Source: Octopus vulgaris | Lineage: Eukaryota | Length of the DNA stretch: 64,000 nucleotides | NCBI GenBank assembly: GCA_951406725.2 | Contig: OX597825.1 | Coordinates: 43,338,001-43,402,000 of the forward strand | Direction: 5' to 3' | Shown: positions 5,345-59,870 of the stretch, piece by piece | How positions within the stretch are numbered: position 1 is the stretch's first letter | How the letters are laid out: each line of letters starts with the position of its first letter | Translations under genes and position numbers: made by a program | The notes under the pieces: generated by a model | The model's database searches: none | What the model was told of the DNA's origin: nothing | Seen by the model: the letters and a program-made list of their open reading frames with translations, nothing else

Positions 5345-5765
5345 TTAGTTCATGTCTACATTTAATTTTTCGTTCGTCAAGGATTAATCAAATTTTTATT
5401 ATTAGTTAATAATATCTCCTTAAATTCGTTAGTACATAATAAACAAAAATTATTACCTATTCGATATGATTTTACCTTACAAACTATCTCCCAATTTAAA
5501 TCGTACTTAATATTTTTAGATTTTAGTTCCCATTTATATTTACTAGGGCCAGTAGAATTAAGTAAATTTCTATTCTTCAAAGAATTCATGTACTGAGCCA
5601 CACGTAATTTAATTTTATTAGCAATCGACCCTATGTAAATTGCATTTAAAGTATAACCATTCCTATTATTATCATCAATCAAAGTCACTACACATTTATA
5701 TACTACATCATCGAAATTTCATTTATTAGTTATTTTACATTTAGTTTTATCTCTACACATACACT
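5345..5765 (-). pseudogene. Penelope-like element C-terminal Zn-motif + GIY-YIG endonuclease relic
   Basis: Minus strand reads CMCRDKTKC..VVYKC..YIGS..KLR..NSTGPSKYKWELK..WEI..CLLCTNE..NLINP..KCRH, the typical PLE linker and GIY-YIG layout, with stops and a frameshift. The AT-rich 3' region continues to ~4440. Confidence 0.85.
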
Positions 5766-10437: not shown

Positions 10438-10829
10438 ATATTTGAATAAAAGAAGTCCAAAAATACCGCTTCCCAAAGATGAAGACGAAAGCTTTAAAAA
10501 ACCCCACAAATCCTACGATAAAAACATACACGAGCGACGCAACGAACACTTTAAAAATAGACATACCTTCAGGATGGAATTTGAAGAAAGTTTACATAAC
10601 TCAATATCAATTGATTTCATGCTGTGCATGAGAAAATATGCACAGCATGAAATCAATTGATATTGGGTTATGTAAACTTTCTTCAAATTCCATCCTGAAG
10701 GTATGTCTATTTTTAAAGTGTTCGTTGCGTCGCTCGTGTATGTTTTTATCGTAGGATTTGTGGGGTTTTTTTAAGCTTTCGCATTCATCTTTGGGAAGCG
10801 GTATTCTTACCCTTCTTTTATTTAAATAT
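10438..10829. repeat. Near-perfect palindrome, ~190-bp arms with 8-nt loop
   Basis: ...GCTGTGCAT(10629) GAGAAAAT ATGCACAGC(10638)... pairing continues outward with few mismatches. Confidence 0.95.
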
Positions 10830-14183: not shown

Positions 14184-15459
14184 CGAGGGGCGTTCAATAA
14201 GTAATGCCCCTGACCCACTTCCCATAGCAGTAGAGCAACGACACTTGGCACAGTTATTAGTCTTTTCCTACATAGGAACTACCCAGAGTTATGCATTTCT
14301 CCCATCGTTTGATATAGCTCTGGAGACCGTTTTTGTAGAAGACCCCAGCTTAGTCTTCCAACCACGACGTGACTTCAGAAATCAAGGCTGCATCATCTGG
14401 GAAACGCTTTCCTTTCAAAATCAACTTCATGGCTGGGAAGAGGTGAAAATCAGAGGGTGCAAGGAGAGGAGTTCATAGCTGCACGCCTGTGCTTCTGATC
14501 TGGCGACACGCGAGTTGTGGACCGACACGCGAGTTGTCCTGCAGGAGGAGGATGCCTTTGCTGATCTTGCCCCGCCTCTTGATTTTGATAGCTTCTCTTA
14601 ATTTCCTCAAAAGTGAAGCATAATAGGCTCCTGTAATTATGGTACCCTTTGCCAGGAAATCTGTCATCACTACTCCGTCCTGGTCCCAGAAGACTGTGAG
14701 CATAACCTTGTCAGCGGAGGGCTGCACCCTTGCCTTCTTTGGAGGAGGTGAGTCACGGTGCTTTCACTGCATTGACTGGGCTTTGGTCTATGGATCATAG
14801 TGATGGACCCAGGTTTTATCCTGTGTGATCAGTCTTTTGAAAAAGTTTGACTCATCTTCTTGGCACATCTCCAAATTCATCCTCGAGCACTCAACGCGTT
14901 CTTGCTTCTGGAAAGGTGTGAGCAACCTGGAAATCCATCTGGCAGACACCTTTTGCATATGCAAATGGTCATGAATGATAGTTTCCACAGACCCGGTACT
15001 AATCTTGACCTTATGGGCTATTTGGCGAATAGTTATGCGTTGACCTTCCAAAATGGCAGCCTCAACTTGACGGACAGACGTCTCATCAACGGCAGAAGGG
15101 GGCGACCAGATCTGGGAGCTGTTTCCACAGAGTTCCGACTATGTTTGAATTCACAATGCCAGCATTTTACAAGGTCATATGATGGGGCATCATCACCATA
15201 AGTTACTTTCATTTCATCAAAAGTCTTCCGTGGTGTGCGTCCTTTCAAATACAAAAACCAGATCACTGCTAGACACTCAACAGGCTCCATTTCACACTTG
15301 ACTCAGTTCAAACACCTGTAAATCAGAAACCACAATTATTTCATTTAGCTGTAATTCGCCACTTAATCTATAGAGGTATAAATAAGTGCACATGCAAAAT
15401 TTCAGCTAGATCAAACAACTGCAAGTGGGTCAGAGGCATTGCTTATTGAACGCCCCTCG
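14184..15459 (-). mobile_element. Full-length mariner transposon, frameshifted transposase (irritans-like)
   Basis: TIRs CGAGGGGCGTTCAATAAG.AATGCC.CTGACCCACTT with TA TSD. Motifs KVSARWI, LITQDKTWVHHYDP, KVMLTVFWD, LLQDN and LAPSDFHLF. Confidence 0.97.
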
Positions 15460-19390: not shown

Positions 19391-20020
19391 CATCACCACG
19401 CACTGCTAATAATAGATGTTAAACCCTTTTTTACTTTCTTTAAAATCTCCGAGAATAACACACATGTTGTAGGGAAGTAAAAGAAAGATGATGAATCAAA
19501 GTTGGTTAACCGTAGACACGTTTCGAACTCAAAGTAAAAATAATTTTAGTTACTGTCTTAACAGTACGGTACTCCTTAGAGCATTAATTCGTGAGTATTT
19601 AAAAAAAATATGCACTTGGCCATGCGACATCAAGTGTCATATATCCATCCATACTCGCAAAAATATACTACTGCGTTTAATTCAAATCTCACTTTTATAC
19701 ACATGTGTGTGTACACATCTAAGACCGCAGTAAATGCCATTTCGATCATTTAGGTTAATTTTCAACATTATTTTATAATTACATGCATAATCATAACAAG
19801 CGGTCAGCTTAAATTTATGCTCTAAGGAGTACCGTACTGATGAAACAGTAAGTAAAGATATTTTTACTTTGAGTTCGAAACGCGTCTATGGTTAACCAAT
19901 TTTGATACATTATCTTTCTTTTACTTACCTACAATATGTGTGTTATTCTCGGAGATTTGAAGGTAGTAAAAAGGCTTTAACGTCTATTTTTAGCAGCACG
20001 TGGTGATGCTTTAAACTGAC
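19380..20020. mobile_element. Element with ~205-bp inverted arms, each carrying a hammerhead motif (inverted pLTR-like)
   Basis: 19380-19586 is an imperfect reverse complement of 19815-20020. Confidence 0.8.
19831..19892 (+). ncRNA. Minimal hammerhead motif with intact CUGAUGA/GAAA/GUC core
   Basis: ACCGTA-CTGATGA-aacagt..AAGTAAAGAtatTTTTACTT..gagttc-GAAAC-GC-GTC-TATGGT. A mutated mirror copy lies at 19509-19570 (-). Confidence 0.7.
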
Positions 20021-22188: not shown

Positions 22189-23463
22189 CGAGGGGCGTTC
22201 AATAAGTAATGCCCCTGACCCACTTCCCATAGCAGTAGAGCAACGACACTTGGCACAGTTATTAGTCTTTTCCTACATAGGAACTACCCAGAGTTATGCA
22301 TTTCTCCCATCGTTTGATACAGCTCTGGAGACCGTTTTTGTAGAAGACCCCAGCTTGGTCTTCCAACCACGACGTGACTTCAGAAATCAAGGCTGCATCA
22401 TCTGGGAAACGCTTCCTTTCAAAATCAACTTCATGGCTGGGAAGCGGTGAAAATCAGAGGGTGCAAGGAGAGGAGTTCATAGCTGCACGCCTGTGCTTCT
22501 GATCTGGCGACACGCGAGTTGTGGACCGACACGCGAGTTGTCCTGCAGCAGGAGGATGCCTTTGCTGATCTTGCCCCGCCTCTTGATTTTGATAGCTTCT
22601 CTTCATTTCCTCAAAAGTGAAGCATAATAGGCTCCTGTAATTGTGGTAACCTTTGCCAGGAAATCTGTCATCACTACTCCGTCCTGGTCCCAGAAGACTG
22701 TGAGCATAACCTTGTCAGCGGAGGGCTGCACCCTTGCCTTCTTTGGAGGAGGTGAGTCACGGTGCTTTCACTGCATTGACTGGGCTTTGGCCTATGGATC
22801 ATAGTGATGGACCCAGGTTTTATCCTGTGTGATCAGTCTTTTGAAAAAGTTTGACTCATCTTCTTGGCACATCTCCAAATTCATCCTCGAGCACTCAACG
22901 CGTTCTTGCTTCTGGAAAGGTGTGAGCAACCTGGAAATCCATCTGGCAGACACCTTTTGCATATGTAAATGGTCATTAATGATAGTTTCCACAGACCCGG
23001 TACTAATCTTGACCTTATGGGCTATTTGGCGAATAGTTATGCGTTGACCTTCCAAAATGGCAGCCTCAACTTGACGGACAGACGTCTCATCAACGGCAGA
23101 AGGGGGCGACCAGATCTGGGAGCTGTTTCCACAGAGTTCCGACTATGTTTGAATTCACAATGCCAGCGTTTTACAAGGTCATATGATGGGGCATCATCAC
23201 CATAAGTTACTTTCATTTCATCAAAAGTCTCCCGTGGTGTGCGTCCTTTCAAATACAAAAACCAGATAACTGCTCGACACTCAACAGGCTCCATTTCACA
23301 CTTGACTCAGTTCAAACACCTGTAAATCAGAAACCACAATTAGTTCATTTAGCTGTAATTCGCCACTTAATCTATAGAGGTATAAATAAGTGCACATGCA
23401 ACATTTCAGCTAGATCAAACAACTGCAAGTGGGTCAGGGGCATTACTTATTGAACGCCCCTCG
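22189..23463 (-). mobile_element. Full-length mariner transposon, second copy of 14184-15459
   Basis: Same TIRs and TA TSD; nearly identical internal sequence and ORF breaks. Confidence 0.97.
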
Positions 23464-26299: not shown

Positions 26300-27325
26300 C
26301 GTTGAAAATCATGAGAGGCGTTAGAACTTTCGTTTTACCTAAAAAATGAACAAAAGAATTTGCTTTTGATTTCATGTATGATACCCAGGCCGAACAGCAT
26401 GGAGGAAGTGCGGCAACTGTTTTTACAAAGAAGGCGAAATTAATGACAACGACAAGACGCATGATAGGTGAGAGCAGAAACCACTGCATGACAAATATAT
26501 GGTCCATAGCAAACAAGCTGATGTTGACCAGAAGTAGACCCATCAGTTGCTGCGAAGCTCAGGGCTAAAAAGAGTGAAGGCTGCTCAAAATCAAAGCTTA
26601 TTAACTCGGAACTACCAAGCCAATGTAATGAAATATGGAGTATATCAAAAGTGTTGATTCTGTAATGATGAGATTGAAACAGTGAGCCACTAAATCAAGA
26701 CATTACGGAGTTGGCTGGTATCTACACTGGCTAATATGTCGGCATTATAAAATCAAAACATTTGACTAGTGACAAAAGCATCACCCTAAGGCTGTAGCTG
26801 ATGGCGAAAACTACCGATTCATTGCAATTTCCAGAACTATCAAAGTTAATAAACAGGATATTATTGTAAAAGACCAAAATAATAAAATTTATTTAATGAT
26901 CGTTATGAGTATCCCTTGTGATTATAATATGTCGGTAAAAGAACTGACAAGCTCAGAAACCATAAAGATTTACTCATTGAAATCGAAAAAAATGTGGCAT
27001 GTCAGGCAGTTGCAATACCAGTGATTGTAGGAGTTCTAGGAATAATCAAAAAGGTACATAAAAAATATTTGAGAAATGATTTCTAGCCTACCGTCCCTAC
27101 AAGAAGAAAAAGAAATTGTTTTAACTGGTACGTTACACGTATTGAGAAGAGGATTGTCGCTGTGAGAACAATTATAACCCATGCAAATAATTTTTTCGAC
27201 ATAACTTTATTTGATTTTCTACATAAACAGTCTGGTATTTGAATGTATCTCGTGAGTTTTTTTTTTTTTGTTCTAGGTAAGGGAAAGTTACTCGACTAGA
27301 AATGGAAACAAAATTGAAGACAAAT
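26300..27325 (+). mobile_element. Old R4/Dong 3' fragment
   Basis: EQKPLHDKY..AAQNQSLLTRNYQ..C.FCNDEIETVSH..DIIVKD..SIPCDYN..IPVIVGVLG..TGTLHVLR; ends at (AAT)n. Confidence 0.8.
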
Positions 27326-27335
27326 AATAATAATG

Positions 27336-27371
<36 letters not shown>

Positions 27372-27376
<5 letters not shown>

Positions 27377-28190
27377 TCTCATTTACATGGATGATTTAAA
27401 GCTCTTTGCAAAAAATGAACAACAACTCAAGGGCTTACTAACGATTGTTAAACAATTCAGCGATGACATCAGAATGAAATTTGGCCTCGGTAAAAGCACA
27501 AAAGCTACTTTTATCAAAGGGAAAATGACAGAAACATCTAACGTTTACCTTGACCTGCAGAATGTCATAAAAGAGTTAGACCCAACAGGGAGCTACAAGT
27601 ACCTAGGGGTAATTGAAGGGGACGGAATAAGGCATTCAATGATGAAGGAAAGGATCAGGAGAGAATGTTATCGCAGAGTAAGAGCAATACTCAAGATATA
27701 GCTGAATGCGAGAAACAGGATCGAAGCGATCAATGCTTTAGCCATACCAGTCGTGACTTACAGTTTCAATATCGTTAACTGGTCAATTACTGAAATATGT
27801 AATCTTGACAAAAAAATACGAAAACTGTTGACAATGCATAGAATGCACCACCCTAAAGCAGATACAGAACGACTTTATCTGCCAAGAAAAGAGGGAGGCC
27901 GTGGACTTTTACAACTGGCAATAACAATGAAGATTGCTACAATTAGCCTAGACACCTACCTGAAAAACTCTGAGGACTGGATGTTAAAACTTGTCTCAAA
28001 ACATGAAAAGAAGAAATCATACTCAGTAACAAAACAGGCAAAGGAATATCTAAGTCAATTCCGAATACAACAAATTTCGGAATTAGATACACAAAGCTAA
28101 GCGCATGAAAACCCGTGCTAAAACTGCGGCCTTAGATATTCTGAATGATAAATGGCAAGAAAAACCTCTCTATGGCAAATACCCAACAAC
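27372..28190 (+). mobile_element. R4/Dong RT fragment starting in (AAT)n
   Basis: NNLIYMDDLKLFAKNE..MKFGLGK..YKYLG..AINALAIPVVTYSF..MHHPKADTERLYLPRKEGGRGL..WQEKPLYGKY. Confidence 0.9.
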
Positions 28191-41701: not shown

Positions 41702-41750
<49 letters not shown>

Positions 41751-41757
<7 letters not shown>

Positions 41758-43306
41758 AGGTTTGAAAATGCAATTTTAAAAGATGTTTATTTACTTTACC
41801 GGTTTCACTCTTTGGAAAAAAAATTGTCAAAAGTAACGTAAAAGTTTGGTTGTGTTAATTATTGGTTGTTACAAAATGCTACAATACATATATACAGTCT
41901 TTGGTAACAAGAAAATGATAAGGACATAAAAAAGTTTAACAAGTTCCTTAAAATATTGGGCACAAAAGATTACAATATATATATACATTCTCAAGAAAAT
42001 GTTAAAGATAGTTTCCAGAAGGAATTATTAAAAAGTTCAGTGGGATATTGTTATTGTATCTGTATATTCATACACGCACAGAATATTGGTTGCCACAAAA
42101 TACTACAATACATATATATACATTCTCTGGTGACAAAAGCATGTTAAGAACATAAAAAAGTTTAACAAGTTCATTAAAATATTGAGCACAAAAGATTACA
42201 ACAAATATATACATTCTCAAGAAAATGTTAAAGATAGTTTCCAGAAGGAATTATTAAAAAGTTCAGTGGAATATTGGTATACATGCACAGAATATTATGA
42301 GTTCAAAAAAGTTTACAGTAGGGAAGCTCAAACTAACCTGTCCACCATGTTAACGTAAAAGACCATTATCTATTTCAAGGGACACTGTAGGTATGTTTGG
42401 GTGGGGGGAAGGAAGAGTAATGTGGAACTGAAAAGAATTTCTCCTTTTTGTCTCTCCTTCACGCATCGATGATTTGGGGGATTGGTCATTAGAGGTCAGA
42501 AACGTTCGAGTGCGTGTGTCTTTGTGTGTGTGTATATACATATGCGGTGTGAATAGATGTGTCTGCGTGTTTGTAAAATATGGTAGGATGGTGTGTGTTT
42601 ATGTGTGCCCGTTTGTCAACCGTGTGTGTGATTGTCTTGGTGTTGTGTGTGTGCGTGTGTATGTGGGTGATTGGCATTTGGTAGGATGGTGTGTGTATAT
42701 GTGTGCCCGTTTGTCAACCGTGTGTGTGATTGTCTTAGTGTTGTGTGTGTGTGAGAGAGTGTGTGTGTGTATGTATGTCTGTGATTGGCATTTGTCATGG
42801 GGTGTGTGTGTATGTGTGTTTGTAAGGAGGTCAGAATGGTGTGAGTGAATGTGTCTTTGTGTGTGTATATATGTATACATGTGTTTGTGTGTGTGTGAGG
42901 GGCTGTTTTTGATTGGTCCCAGGGTCCATTGTGGTGTAAATAGATGTGTGTTTTTTTTAATATTTGGTAGGATAGTGTGTGTTTATGTGTGCTCGTTTGT
43001 CAACCGTCTGTGTGATTGTCTTGGTGTTGTGTGTGTGTGTTGCGTGTGTGTTCGTATGTGTGTCCATGTGTGTTGGGTTTGTCTGGGTGACGTGTGCGTG
43101 TTTATGCTTTTTGTGTGTGTTGGTATTGAGTATGTGTTTGTGTGTGTGCATATATATGGTGCGAGTGTGTGTGTCTTTGTGTGTTTGTTTTGGATGTGTG
43201 CCTGGGGGGTATGTTAGAGTATGTTTAGTTGTGGTCTGTATTTTTGAATAAGATTATTTTCCCTATTTATTCGTGTTTGGTCTGACAAATACCAATCACG
43301 TACATT

Positions 43307-43342
<36 letters not shown>

Positions 43343-44304
43343 TATACCCAACAGAAATGGACACACATACGAACAAACACATTCACACTAGCGCTCACGC
43401 AACACACTAACAAACATTAACCACACACATACACACACACACACAAACGGGCACACATATACACACACGATCCTACCAAATTTTAAAAACACACATCTAT
43501 TTACACCACAATGGATACTGGGACCAATCAAAAACAGCTCACACACACACACACACACAAACACATGTATACATATATACACACAAACAAAGACATCACA
43601 CTCACACCATTTTGACCTCAATACAGACACACATATACACACACATGCACACACGCAGCACCATGATAAATGCCAATCACGCACATACCTACACACACAC
43701 ACACAACACCAAGACAATCACACACGGGGTTGACAGATGTGCACAATTATACAAACGCCATCCTACCAAATTTCTAAAAAAACACATCTATTTACACCAC
43801 AATGGACCCTGGGACCAATCAAAAACCGCCCCCCACACACAATGTATATATTTGTTGTAATCTTTTGTGCCCAATATTTTAATGAACTTGTTAAACTTTT
43901 TATGTTCTTAACATGCTTTTGTCACCAACGAATGTATATATATGTATTGTAGTATTTTGTGGCAACCAATATTCTGTGCGTGTATGAATATACAGATACA
44001 ATAACAATATCCCACTGAACTTTTTAATAATTCCTTCTGGAAACTATCTTTAACATTTTCTTGAGAATGTATATTTATGTTGTAATCTTTTGTGCCCAAC
44101 ATTTTAAGGAACTTGTTAAACTTTTTTATGTCCTTAACATGTTCTTGTTACCAAAAACTGTATATATGTATTGTAGCATTTTGTAACAACCAATAATTAA
44201 CACAACCAAACTTTTACGTTACTTTTGACAATTTTTTTTCCAAAGAGTGAAACCGGTAACGTAAATAAACATCTTTTAAAATTGCATTTTCAAACCTTCT
44301 TTCG
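41751..44304. mobile_element. ~2.55-kb foldback element with ~460-bp terminal inverted repeats
   Basis: 41753-42214 is the reverse complement of 43841-44302. Inner GT-rich and AC-rich arms also pair (GATTGGTCCCAGGGTCCATTGTGGTGTAAATAGATG / CATCTATTTACACCACAATGGACCCTGGGACCAATC). TA at both ends. Confidence 0.88.
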
Positions 44305-44351
44305 TATATAATTCCACTCGGACGGTACCCTACAACTCCACTTTGTTATAA

Positions 44352-44533: not shown

Positions 44534-44565
<32 letters not shown>

Positions 44566-44655
44566 TCGGGGTGAGTAGTTGATAATTATAAGCACCTGTG
44601 TATACCGTTTGGTGGAGTAAATTGATCAAAATAAAAACATGATGCGAAGGATTCA

Positions 44656-44733
44656 GCGGTACATATGTTTCGGGCCTTTATTAGACAGATTTATAACAAT
44701 GCATAATGTATGTCTGTGGCCTTCTTCAGCCGC
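44656..44733 (-). ncRNA. Mirror copy of the intact hammerhead
   Basis: Reverse complement of 45773-45850. Confidence 0.8.
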
Positions 44734-45772
44734 GCACAACAGCTTCCACAAGGACATGTGTTACATCAAAAATTCTTGGTTGGGGATGCAAATCCTCTCA
44801 TTCGCGTACGACATAATGCGGCAGCAGCATAGAATTGAAGCGTCCATCTCTTTCTTCTCTCAATGTAGAATGAGGAAAATTGGATGTTGAAGTAATGTAA
44901 ATAAATAAATACATATATAGACGTGAAGATGGAGGGGCGAGAATTCAGGACGAGGGATAAAAAATGTATAAAAAGTGTAAGTATAGAAAAATATAAAAAT
45001 GTAGAGCATAAAGATATAAAGAAGTATAAGGAGATGTAAAGGGGGTATAAAGAATATAAAGAAATGTAAAGAAATATAAATAAATGTAAAGGCATAAGGT
45101 TATAAAGTAAAAATAGAAATAGAAATAAAAGTAAAAAAACATGATAAAAATGTAAAAAAATATAAAGATAAGGGATGTATAGAGGTTACGGACCAAGCAT
45201 GGTGGTCAGGAGATTGATAAAATTTAGTTGTAGAATTGTCAGTAAATAAACAGTTTCGTCTGGGGACCTAATGTGTTGTAAATCAGAGCTGTTGAGCGTT
45301 TAATCTGGTTCCTTGAATTAATTGGACTTCTAGTACACACATATCATCATGGATACATACACCCATATACACGCGTACATATACGCCTCCAAGCCTATAA
45401 GCATACACACGCACTCGCGTGTAAACATGTACATAAACACACACACACCCACACGCACGCGCGTACACATACATACATACAACAGAATATCCGCATGTAT
45501 ACACGGACACTATACGTGTACACACTCACATGTACATACGCGCGCCCATCCCTACATACACACACGCATATGCCCACGCTTCCAGGTCTAGATATAAGAT
45601 ATTAAAGGATGTATATAAGAACGTATGTAAAGAATCACTACATTGAGAGAAGAAAGAGATGGACGCTTCAATTCTATGCTGCTGCCGCATTATGTCGTAC
45701 GCGAATGAGAGGATTTGCATCCCCAACCAAGAATTTTTGATGTAACACATGTCCTTGTGGAAGCTGTTGTGC

Positions 45773-45850
45773 GCGGCTGAAGAAGGCCACAGACATACAT
45801 TATGCATTGTTATAAATCTGTCTAATAAAGGCCCGAAACATATGTACCGC
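45773..45850 (+). ncRNA. Type-I hammerhead ribozyme with intact catalytic core
   Basis: GCGG-CTGAAGA-aGGCC...ACAGA..TCTGT..GGCCc-GAAAC-ATAT-GTA-CCGC. Stem I GCGG/CCGC; predicted cleavage after A45846; A.C mismatch at the base of stem II. Confidence 0.8.
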
Positions 45851-46247
45851 TGAATCCTTCGCATCTTGTTTATATATATATATACATACATTTCATTTTC
45901 ATTTTTAGCGCTTTCTTCTGCTATCGGATTTATCAAAAAGTGGTTTGAAGTTAGATTTCTTGGCCTTTTTATATACATACAATTTTGTGTAGATTGTCAA
46001 GCAAGCGAGACCTTTTAAGATGGGTAGGAAAAATAATTTTTCTATTTTTGAAATGGTTAAGATTTTAACTGAAAAACCAGCAGTTGTTTTTGACTTTATT
46101 CAGTGAAAATTATAATTGCATTTCCAGGTCTTGTTCTTTTGTATAGTCATTAAAGAATAGTTGTATGAATGTGGTCAACGTTTCTTGATTGAATCACTAG
46201 ATGTTTTCGAAAGAGTGATTTTTTAGTTCGCTATACACTCACACATC

Positions 46248-50485: not shown

Positions 50486-52130
50486 TGTTGTTCCTCCCCA
50501 CCCCGTGTGGGATGGAGGCAGAGATGCCTAGTGCAAGCGTAAAGAAGAAAATGGAAGCTACGCAGCAGGAGCGGGAAAAAGAATGAAACGCAGTTCGAAA
50601 TGAGAGAGGTAATGATATCTCGCAATAAGCTACGGAAATGCAAGAAGTATGCAGAAAAGGAGGGGGGCAAAGTAAAGTTGACCCCTCCAGAAGAGCTTTT
50701 GGCATAAGTAGAAAAAAGAAAAATTATATACAGGACCCTCAACCTGAAGGAAAGTAAGATAAAAGTGGCTACGAGTAGGACATCGAAAGGTGTTTTGACT
50801 GCATAACAAAGGAAGTAACCTTTTATGCACGTGGAAGGAAATTCGGTACAGTAAATGTGAGATTTGCCTCCACTGGAGAAGCAGTAAAGAACGTGCGATA
50901 CAACAGTGGCGATGAAGTTTCAAATAGTACCGAAACGGAAGAGTTACTGAAAGCAGTCGTAAAACAATAAGAGCAGCAACAGCAGTAACTACAGATGTTA
51001 ATAGAGTTGTTGCTGCAGTCGAGAAATTCGACAGAATCATTTTCAGCGGACGATATTGCAAAATCCACCGAAAAATTTCAGTACAAGCCGGATGAAGGAA
51101 CTACCTTTACCGCGTAGACATATTCTGAGAAGAATGCAAGGGATGGTCTACTGAAAGGAAGGTAAGGCTCCTTTTGCGAAAACTTGCCCCTTCGGAACTT
51201 GAAAATGCTTGTAACTTTATTTTGCGAAGATAGAAATGGGACTGGAAAGCATTTTGTGCAATATAGCACGTGATTTGCCGGCAACGCTGGAAGAAATTGA
51301 ATTGAAATTGGAAAAAGATATGTTCATGAACACGATTAAAAAAATATTATTGGAAAGCAACACGAAGAGTAATATAAATGAACGGAACGCAGGTTCAAAG
51401 CATTATTCAGTATGTGATGATGTAGGATATCCGGGGTTTGCCCGGATGAAAAGCCTCATGAAGACTTACGTGCATTGACCGAATATGGACAAGCAAATTG
51501 AGAGACTGGTAAAACAATGTAGGGGATACGCTATGGCAGCAAACGCGCCCCCAGAGCAGATAGAGCCGTGGCCAAAAACTAATTCAGCATGGTCTAGATT
51601 GCATGTGGATTTCACAGGACAAATAAATGGCTCTTATCATATCATCGTGGTGGATAGCTATTCCAAATGGACTGAAGTGTGTAAATATTCAAAGCCAACC
51701 ACAAATGTGACTATTGACTTCTTGCAAGAATTGTTCGCTCGTTATAGACTGCAAGATACGATCGTGTCAGATAATGGCCCACAATTGACGACGAAGGAGT
51801 TCGAAAGATTCGGTAAGTCGGTCCAGATGAAGCATGTGTTAACTCCGCCATACCATCCCAGGTCAAATGTTTTAGCTAAGATTCTTCGACACACTCAAGA
51901 AAGCCTTAATAAAGACCAGACGAGAAGCCCTTGAAGATAGAAATATGACAAAGTTCTTATAGGTGTACAGTATAACACCGAATCCAAATTCAGAGTCGGT
52001 TAGGTCGCCCGCAGACTTGATGTTCACCAGAAAGATTCGTTCTCTGTCTGACAAAATGTTGACAAAGTGTTTGACAAATTGTAGAAAACGGAAAATACAA
52101 AATTCGGGAAGTAGAACGAAATTGTGTTGA
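50486..52130 (+). mobile_element. Ty3/Gypsy LTR retrotransposon relic (5' LTR, PBS, gag fragment, integrase)
   Basis: TGTTGT(50486)...ACAACA(50905) followed by PBS-like TGGCGATGAAG. Integrase motifs GYPGFARMK..WSRLHVDF..VVDSYSKW..IVSDNGPQ..PPYHPRSN. Confidence 0.85.
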
Positions 52131-52829: not shown

Positions 52830-53589
52830 ATATATATACACACACATATACTAAATGCTCCACCATATTAAATTGTAAATTGAAAGATTTGTCCTTCAAT
52901 GTATGATGAGCAAAATTTCATAAGGTCCATACTTGAAAGAGAGACTCTCTTGTGTTGAAGTTACTAATGACAGAATGCAAGCTGACAACTACTGAGTCTG
53001 TTGTCTGATCTTCAATTGATTTAGTCTAATATCTCACTGATTAAATAGATATTAAGTTTTATCATACAGGAGCAACTTGTATTAGAAAATTCTTCAGAAA
53101 GATATATAGGTGTGTAAAATAATTGTTGAATTAAAAATATAAATATATATAAAAATATATGTAAATATGTATAAGTGTAAATATATAATATATATGACAG
53201 TTTAAACATTTTGAATTCAGTTTTTAAAGCATCTTACGATCGTTTCGCAGAAGTGCTGTCTCTATAATGGAATCCTATATTGATAAGCATTTATAGACAA
53301 CTCTTCTGCTCTTCAGCGATATAAAATTTGAATTTTGTATAATATATCGAATGGTAGTTTTTAAAAATAAGAATATGATAATATGGTGTTTGCTTGAAAT
53401 ATAAATCAAAAATTAAAAATTGCTGCTTTTGATTTTGGTAAGCACACTTTAGTGTGAGAGTCTTAAAATCCATATATGCTTCCTTGGTAAATCTTTAATA
53501 ATCCATAATAGTTATGTGTAAAAGTTATATTATAAAGCCTCAGCCTATCAAAATCCGTCGTTCATGAGCACCAAGTAAAGCTGCGCACA

Positions 53590-54339
53590 CAAATCGCTAC
53601 GATGTTTGGGTACCACATGAGTGAGAAGAACCTTTTGGATCGCATTTCCATCTGTGATTCGCTTTATAAATGGAATGAAAACGCGCCTTCTTTATAGAAA
53701 ATTGTGACAGGTGATGAGAAATGGATTATGTATCGAAATGTTCAGAGAAAGCGATATGAGCCACTCCTAGCCACCACAAAAACGGGTCTTCACCCTAAAA
53801 AGGTCTTGCTTCGTGTCTGGTTGGATTAGAAAGGAATTCTGTACTATGAGCTTCTCCCAAGTAACCAGACAATAAATTCTGAAAAATACTGCACACAACT
53901 GGACGAGTTAAAAGCAGCAATTCAAGAGAAACTTCCAGAATTGGCCAACAGGAAAGGTGTTGTTTTCCAACATGATAATGCAAGACTGCACATTTCTTTG
54001 GGAACCAGACAAAAATTGCTGTAGCTCGGCTGGGATGTGTTACCCACCCTCCATATTCACCACATATTGCTCCTTCGGATTTCCACTTATTCAGGTCTCT
54101 GCAGAATAGTCTTAATGGTAAAAATTTCAATTCCATGGATGATGTAAAAAGATACCTTGATGAATTCATTGCCACGAAACCAACTCAATTCTGGGAAGAG
54201 GGTATTTTAAAGTTAAAGGAAAGATGGAGATGCATTGTGCAACAAAATGGTTCATATTTGGTTGACTAAAAATGTAATGGCAAGTATTTATTGACCTTTC
54301 TCGTTCCTTTAAAAATCGGTACGAACTTTCCGGACAACC

Positions 54340-59269: not shown

Positions 59270-59379
59270 CTAATTTTTTTTAGAAAATCAAAGAAACTAT
59301 GGAAGTGTTCGAGTCAAACCCGGGACGCTAGACAAGTGGGTCTCTATCTGCTGCCCCTCAAATTAGGAAAAGCTACGCA

Positions 59380-59870
59380 AACGTATCTGATGGGCTATAC
59401 AGTGATGATACTCTATTCGCAGTAAATGGTTCATCTAAACCGGAGATTGAAAGAATTAAAAAGTCACTGAGAACATTGCTTTTGAATTTCTTTAATCTCA
59501 ATATTGTATTCAAGACTGACACAAAAATAAAAATTATACTAACCGTACAGTAAAACAAATCAAACATTGCAATGTATTAACGTCTCTTCTAATCATTCGA
59601 AATTAAACATTGATAGTATTATCACCACCATCTCCATTAGAATATACAGTCTATCAGCAAACGAGGAGATCTTCAATGCACACGCACCAACTTATAATCA
59701 TGCCCTAAAATTATGCGGCTTTCAAGACCATGTTTTCTACATCCCGGACACCAAACTCAAAATTAATTAGCTAATTTAACACTTCATAGGAATTGTGATA
59801 TGAGTAAAATAACCCCATCATTAAATTATAAACCTATAAGAAGACCTTTCATTGACCCTATTAAATTTTA
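59380..59870 (+). pseudogene. Penelope-like RT/thumb relic
   Basis: GLYSDDTL (cf. GLYRDDGL)..EIERIKK; INVSSNH..ISIRIYSLSANEEIF..YNHALKLCGF. Confidence 0.8.

Follow-up and report, generated by a model that had tools for sequence, protein, structure and literature searches.

Penelope-like elements (PLEs) of the Hydra clade are recognised by an RT with a C-terminal GIY-YIG domain, by the motifs DKT, RW-x, CxCX5C, CxxC and CxH, and by a (TA)n target, and the clade includes an octopus family, Hydra-1_Obim (Craig et al. 2021, PMC8557442). Inverted pLTRs of EN+ PLEs have been described as head-to-head truncated copies with a tail at one end only (PMC8557442 Fig. 2, PMC3846280), and opposite-strand PLE hammerhead pairs 100-700 bp apart are already known (Cervera and De la Pena 2014, PMC4209133). 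The latter study also proposed hammerhead-made circular RNA, and saw no cleavage when a single PLE hammerhead motif of the dimer-dependent type was tested. In the case of the Poseidon element PAc (Anolis), the protein cuts and extends both target strands in vitro, RT starts at two internal RNA sites bounding the tail, and hammerhead cleavage is dispensable, with the Anolis hammerhead cleaving only in the presence of protein (Frangieh et al. 2024, PMC11167929). The origin of PLE tandem and inverted repeats with a one-sided tail, as well as the role of the hammerhead, is left open in the passages of PMC8557442 and PMC11167929 that treat them, and the family described here bears on this question.

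We analysed a 64,000-nt window of the Octopus vulgaris genome (assembly GCA_951406725.2, contig OX597825.1, positions 43,338,001 to 43,402,000 of the forward strand), the whole stretch of DNA in which an earlier note, made from the sequence alone, had singled out an inverted pair of hammerheads. With a probability of roughly 0.8, we read the locus as a young Hydra-clade Penelope-like retrotransposon that inserted into a TA repeat as two truncated copies placed head to head. On this reading, both target strands were likely cut and one RNA copied from two fixed start sites, so that the arms likely arose in the course of insertion as a by-product, and in read-through RNA the hammerhead is predicted to be inactive. 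Taken singly, the locus is ordinary mobile-element debris and gives no basis for a host-gene switch; the locus-specific claims fail, and the family-level rules are the worthwhile part.

Results and discussion

Layout and age of the locus

The left arm and positions 45638-45865 are complementary at 228 of 228 positions, with 2 mismatches across the next 10 bases, and the arm and motif match at the locus lies well above chance level (Table 1). The exact alignment that the earlier note had called for upholds its identical 228-bp inverted arms. The span it gave, 44641..45865, is right for the arms and too short for the insertion as a whole, which covers 44557-45871 with a tail (44557-44640) on one side only and (TA)n on both. 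The 769-nt 'spacer' between the arms is the 3' UTR of the element, continuous with the left arm. The locus consists of two 5'-truncated 3' ends of a PLE placed head to head within (TA)n: on the minus strand, the final 985 nt and the tail; facing it, an inverted copy of 209 nt with the short end. It is one of few mixed cases, in which one arm ends at -209 and the other continues past this point.

Table 1 Features of the insertion, in window positions.
Feature	Position	Strand	Remarks
(TA)n target, left	44535..44560	.	Last 4 bases common to the element's TATA; family ends in (TA)n
Long-end copy	44557..45638	-	Carries 985 nt of 3' UTR before the cut; tail reaches +120
Tail (post-cut sequence, start of element 5' UTR)	44557..44659	-	Runs into the ORF in tandem loci L040, L046, L101 and L102
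Left 228-bp arm, belonging to the long-end copy	44641..44868	-	Complementarity
Type I hammerhead motif, left copy	44656..44733	-	Predicted cut after A at 44660
Initiator-like TCATT, which we take to be an Inr-like motif	44869..44873	-	Putative RNA start at its A (44871), 212 nt upstream of the cut; arm 5' ends cluster here
Central inversion junction	45638..45638	.	Unique to the locus among loci examined
Short-end inverted copy	45638..45871	+	First base 3 nt downstream of the putative RNA start; last base ~+25 to +29 past the cut
Type I hammerhead motif, right copy	45773..45850	+	Helix II region of 51 nt and palindromic helix III; cleavage predicted after A45846
(TA)n target, right	45872..45884	.	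Read from sequence

The long-end copy is 99.1% identical to locus L031 over 979 nt. In octopus, a distance of 0.09 corresponds to 25 My (PMC13282606); if this rate is applied, the 0/228 differences between the arms would make the insertion younger than ~1.8 My (95% bound). It is young yet not pristine: compared with most copies, the tail has lost 12 nt by deletion and has one substituted base, and the short end also carries a substitution. The earlier description of a young PLE insertion with an inverted pLTR is borne out.

Copy number, protein and clade

When the octopus's own genome (2.8 Gb) was searched with the arm, 1,459 first-look candidates were obtained, of which 40 were scored; all of these proved 100% identical to the arm, so that there are at least 40 identical loci. 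A 25-mer over the 3' half of the hammerhead has 1,773 exact genome matches and 0 in the reversed control. Junctions with (TA)n were found at 390 exact long ends and 449 exact short ends, with 0 in reversed controls. Linkage to a PLE ORF, which the earlier note had wanted checked together with copy number, was found as well, the left arm continuing via the 'spacer' into the ORF.

An intact 836-aa protein is encoded at all 5 of the ORF loci checked (L101-L105). It is a single ORF, RT followed by a C-terminal GIY-YIG domain, and contains RIRWA at 37 (RW is present, with A as the third residue versus RWK), PADKT at 124 (DKG modified to DKT), YRDD at 357, CxCX5C at 696, YIG at 730, CxxC at 793 and CxH at 823; no CCHH was seen in the printed EN, judged by eye. 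Pfam returned no RT or EN match for the family proteins, only sub-threshold Desmo_N and similar, and a PDB sequence search with the family protein likewise gave no RT or EN match. Among Atlas neighbours, GIY-YIG occurs on 25-50% of members and HTH_animal on 25-100%. On the basis of the motifs, a by-eye likeness to the Hydra-1_Obim protein and the Atlas matches, the element is assigned to the Hydra clade of PLEs. Naiad/Chlamys PLEs, which have an N-terminal endonuclease, DKA and no canonical hammerhead, were ruled out, the EN here being C-terminal, the motif DKT and a hammerhead present.

In tandem loci the post-hammerhead sequence is the 5' UTR of the next ORF, with the ATG at +196 and a unit of 4,675 nt; the four loci named for the tail in Table 1 are partial tandem copies. 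Contigs from four runs presumed to be RNA span the pLTR, tail and ORF start, and are silent on starts, ends, strand and level.

The family shares with the Hydra clade the single RT/GIY-YIG ORF, the motif set, the (TA)n target and the 3'-end hammerhead (PMC8557442). It departs from the published description in its longer unit with a 2-kb 3' UTR ('generally <3 kb' in the clade), in RWA versus RWK, in a 51-nt helix II region and an even 8-nt helix III palindrome (short loops and a 1-2-nt loop III, respectively, in six Hydra rows), and in a tail of ~73 nt versus 30-40; the hammerhead sequence sets it apart from Hydra-1_Obim (PMC8557442). The layout of head-to-head truncated copies with a tail at one end only matches that of EN+ PLE inverted pLTRs, and the pLTR of ~200 bp with an Inr-like motif is also found here (PMC8557442, PMC3846280). 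The locus itself is not special within the family, since intact 836-aa copies are present elsewhere in the genome and the hammerhead 3' half recurs in so many exact copies.

Loci L106-L120 represent sister PLE families with ~57% protein identity and open frames of 930-1,072 aa. Their hammerheads have a 7-bp helix II with 57-58-nt inserts, and they possess their own short and long ends at (TA)n.

Ends and pairing of inverted copies

Two classes of end join (TA)n, a long class at +115 to +133 (mode +120) and a short class at +27 to +59 (mode +47). The top of the genome junction lists (the first 100 long junctions, and 91 of the first 100 short ones after leaving out 9 beyond the range of the long list) yielded 38 inverted pairs within 12 kb, comprising 37 long/short, 1 short/short and 0 long/long (P=1.3e-10). 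Reading 81 loci in full gave 33 inverted pairs, 32 long/short and 1 short/tandem; this set, which overlaps the 38 pairs, was chosen by arm identity, long end or ORF and was not blind, and it tests long/long only, since 40 of the 81 loci had been picked by their long end. The rule was replicated in 20 further loci picked by the hammerhead 25-mer (one had a previously known short end), where 14/14 head-to-head pairs were long/short; the other loci showed unpaired arms (five loci) or a tail-to-tail pair (one locus).

Arms measure anything from 24 nt to >4 kb, central junctions differ, and the short-end arm is the longer one in 9/33 and 6/14 pairs. Most junctions display a 0-6 nt overlap or insertion with no palindrome, and L002, L062, L072 and L073 have near-symmetric junctions. 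Partner arms are 0.5% divergent over 1.2 kb, versus 6.6% between loci (5 pairs among 40 arms), and the minor alleles in this set divide into 174 common to partners, 7 shared-but-discordant and 25 private. A 199-nt comparison of 21 pairs gave 0.5% versus 1.3% and alleles of 31/3/18. The 7 discordant alleles are shared with other loci, six of them being in L031. Gene conversion between arms could contribute to the allele sharing of partners.

Insertions of three or four alternating inverted segments were observed at L080, L093, L095 and L100, suggesting repeated switching within one event. A further site (G000:C1:57297027-57313345) holds three same-strand hammerhead copies ~8.1 kb apart, with identical flanks in the two read, so it appears to be a tandem segmental duplication.

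A shared truncation point at the putative RNA start

Among 47 arm 5' ends in L061-L100, 15 lie 199-221 nt upstream of the cut, with 12 in the interval 60-198 and 3 in 222-500, and the cluster is centred on the A of TCATTC at -212. The figure of 228 bp is therefore a preferred truncation length and not that of a designed repeat. Where both partners extend to this point, they tend either to end at it or to run past it together (8 both stopping, 2 one, 11 neither; p=2e-4), with 3/1/6 in the replication table. Judged from truncation points only, an RNA 5' end would fit the shared stop better than a stall. If -212 is the RNA 5' end, long arms would need a continuous template, either a longer tandem transcript or a hammerhead-made circle.

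A G precedes the inferred start in all three +1 starts of the first set (one explained by the partner arm) and in 2/3 of the second; a cap-derived extra G was set aside as start evidence, the counts being too weak. A DPE-like GGACG at +27, one base away from the usual spacing, was left unused as evidence. A single strong 9-bp stem was predicted in the 5' UTR, pairing 95-103 and 177-185 (L046 unit positions; probability 0.79-0.99), and twin hairpins at both RT start sites were rejected, the fold giving no clear pair beside both. The stem encloses the +120 start and persists in the diverged copy L113, where one of its pairs is G.U; the tail substitution at the locus falls in its 5' strand.

Proposed insertion mechanism

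In L1 twin priming, both nicked target strands prime on one RNA to create an inversion, and the second primer lands upstream so that nothing is duplicated. Here, the two starts would lie ~73 nt apart and the same segment would be copied twice. The insertion steps we infer would begin with a tandem source copy transcribed from ~212 nt upstream of the hammerhead. The RT/GIY-YIG protein would then nick both (TA)n strands, one 3' end priming at ~+120 nt and the other at ~+30 to +47 nt past the hammerhead cut site, and both cDNAs would copy back across the uncut or re-ligated hammerhead. Each cDNA would halt independently, often at the RNA start (yielding ~210-nt arms) and further on where the template is longer or circular, before repair joins the two, leaving an overlap or insertion of a few bases.

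We lean slightly towards staggered twin priming as the general origin of PLE inverted repeats, whereby both (TA)n strands would prime on one RNA. There would be two template classes: a linear RNA from -212 with the hammerhead uncut would give ~590-bp palindromes, and the long arms would come from a continuous 4.7-kb RNA that may be circularised by the hammerhead. This model is favoured by the long/short end rule, by the fact that either arm can be the longer, by allele sharing and by two-strand extension in vitro (PMC11167929). PAc resembles the present family in its two internal starts bounding the tail, its AT-rich target, the processing of both strands and a hammerhead crossed uncut; it belongs to another clade, its starts lie inside the ORF as opposed to the 5' UTR, and they are reported without target homology, whereas both main ends here are at TA in the RNA (PMC11167929). 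The end rule, the longer arm on either side, the allele sharing and the shared -212 stop are here counted over many loci, such counts and the model being absent from the relevant passages of PMC8557442 and PMC3846280. By title and abstract opening, no PLE-mechanism paper was found to propose twin priming for Penelope inversions, subscription papers (e.g. Arkhipova 2006) being outside the search.

Several points count against the steps proposed, namely the mixed locus of the window, which would call for two RNAs, a stall or a stop by chance, as well as the one short/short pair, the seven discordant shared alleles and possible gene conversion. Mixed loci would be accommodated by a variant, with the same element identity, in which the arms are copied from two RNAs of one source locus linked through either a protein dimer or the palindromic helix III. 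The PAc protein is a predicted dimer (PMC11167929), and an intermolecular helix III is computed at -7.0 kcal/mol. We nevertheless hold this variant to be unlikely, as the -212 stop is strongly common to partners, as one molecule would give, and alleles seldom differ between them.

Self-priming or fold-back, with one arm copied from the other as put forward for rotifer Penelopes on an antisense template (PMC3846280), is improbable. It would account for near-identical arms with shared alleles and for the near-symmetric junctions, but leaves the long and short ends of 37/38 pairs unexplained and does not fit the majority of junctions, which are not palindromic. At L070, L071 and L126, moreover, the short-end arm exceeds its long-end partner by up to 4 kb, and the share of pairs with a longer short-end arm excludes fold-back copying of one cDNA as the source. 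Staggered twin priming predicts RT starts near +47 and +120, an RNA start at -212 and a unit of 4,675 nt, and the intact 836-aa enzyme copies and >1,700 ends make it directly testable.

The hammerhead motif and its predicted activity

The earlier note had placed an intact-core hammerhead in each arm, with cleavage after A45846, and both the motif and its predicted cut are correctly located; the two motifs read outward. On the plus strand, stem I pairs GCGG (45773-76) with CCGC (45847-50). The core CUGAAGA (45777-83) is followed by A45784, and helix II is closed by GGCC (45785-88) and GGCC (45830-33). Then come C45834, GAA (45835-37), the palindrome ACAUAUGU (45838-45) and A45846. The CUGANGA core, GAAA, UH and three helices of a type I hammerhead are all present, with a helix III of only 2 bp as a monomer. 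The core-adjacent helix II is imperfect, with A.C opposed at 10.1-11.1 or, alternatively, one A and one C bulged out; a G10.1-C11.1 pair requires bulging of A45784 and of one C, and the predicted fold keeps A.C unpaired. No other base was found at position 10.1 among 96 arms. An Rfam search (E<=1) returned no hammerhead family among 110 hits, which were microsatellite look-alikes.

The motif shares with described PLE hammerheads the type I arrangement, a 4-bp helix I, an extra base after position 9 and a palindromic minimal helix III, with a helix II bulge as in D. virilis, and is distinguished by its long helix II insertion and GUA cleavage triplet (PMC4209133). The extra base, bulged helix II and palindromic minimal helix III mark it, as far as sequence can tell, as the known dimer-dependent PLE type. 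The hammerhead is the most conserved zone, with a diversity of 1.1% versus 2.3% in the leader and 5.7-6.8% upstream (17 arms). Two sister motif types retain an 8-nt palindrome of another sequence and a stem I with compensatory changes; when no palindrome filter was applied, 8 motif types were found, of which 4 are palindromic, 3 are one base off and 1 is not palindromic. Since sister families keep a palindromic helix III and compensatory changes in stem I, the hammerhead looks selected at the family level.

With a folding z-score of 0.6-0.9 versus shuffles, the motif is not unusually stable. In an 83-nt construct, the hammerhead is the minimum-energy fold (stem pair probabilities 0.76-0.85). 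The stem I probability is 0.00-0.01 in four longer contexts: the 111-nt construct proposed in the earlier note, where the hammerhead fold carries a penalty of 5.1 kcal/mol, the complete arm, the read-through RNA, and a transcript beginning at the putative element start (44871), which would lack the antisense arm and also a partner hammerhead. Read-through RNA is predicted to fold into the arm duplex (-451 kcal/mol), as had been proposed, and imposing the hammerhead fold costs 126 kcal/mol. Because the antisense arm is transcribed first and the cost of forcing the hammerhead is so high, the duplex would act as a one-way block and not as the antisense switch that had been suggested, and the inversion is a family-wide by-product.

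The view of the locus as the best candidate for a currently active ribozyme, with a switch able to cut a host pre-mRNA, is consequently very improbable. The core is intact, the duplex is real, the short construct folds as required and sister families conserve the motif; however, stem I is predicted not to form in the four longer contexts, helix III is minimal, the same motif segments occur in 87/96 arms, and tandem copies beside intact ORFs are better candidates. The single motif tested by others did not cleave and the Anolis one needs protein (PMC4209133, PMC11167929). No host exon was found in the 150/270 candidate frames scanned (24.2-63.5 kb), where short exons would escape and the 3 hits were all TE domains, and the pre-mRNA cutting idea therefore remains conditional. 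Ribozyme activity at the locus is thus unlikely by prediction, and the hammerhead would most likely act on element RNA, as a dimer or aided by protein, releasing the unit-length 4,675-nt RNA, and not on host RNA.

We give next to no weight to an artefact of assembly or to a MITE whose terminal inverted repeats are 228 bp long: perfect arm identity and a locus junction known from the assembly alone would suit either, but an artefact is unlikely because the layout recurs with different central junctions in 33/81 and 14/20 further loci, and contigs from independent runs contain the two end types as TA loose ends, while a MITE or TIR DNA transposon, with fixed symmetric inverted repeats, is ruled out by variable arm lengths, varied junctions, asymmetric ends and continuity into the RT ORF.

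Other elements in the window

To the left of the locus, 41745-44310 is a second (TA)n-flanked inverted insertion whose 414-nt arms match at 97%, with a ~50-nt tail confined to the right side and a CA-rich spacer. No intact hammerhead core was found in this interval, which probably represents another PLE family. A hammerhead-like motif at 53316 (-) has a 7-bp helix II, a 63-nt insert and the palindrome ACGAUCGU, followed by a TA run, with stem I unpaired. Another at 19837 (+) has the core CUGAUGA, the palindromic ACGCGU, a 6-bp stem I with G.U pairs and a weak helix II, and is likely decayed. Remnants of related PLE proteins lie at 5383-5763 (-) and 59362-59743 (+), the EN part being 33% and the RT part 40-41% identical to the 836-aa protein. 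A near-perfect 78-nt palindrome occupies 10595-10672. The window is TE-rich, as it also contains two near-identical mariner-like fragments (14788-15138 and 22792-23142), an RT fragment (27318-27698), an integrase core (51479-51931) and a partial DDE transposase (53830-54021).
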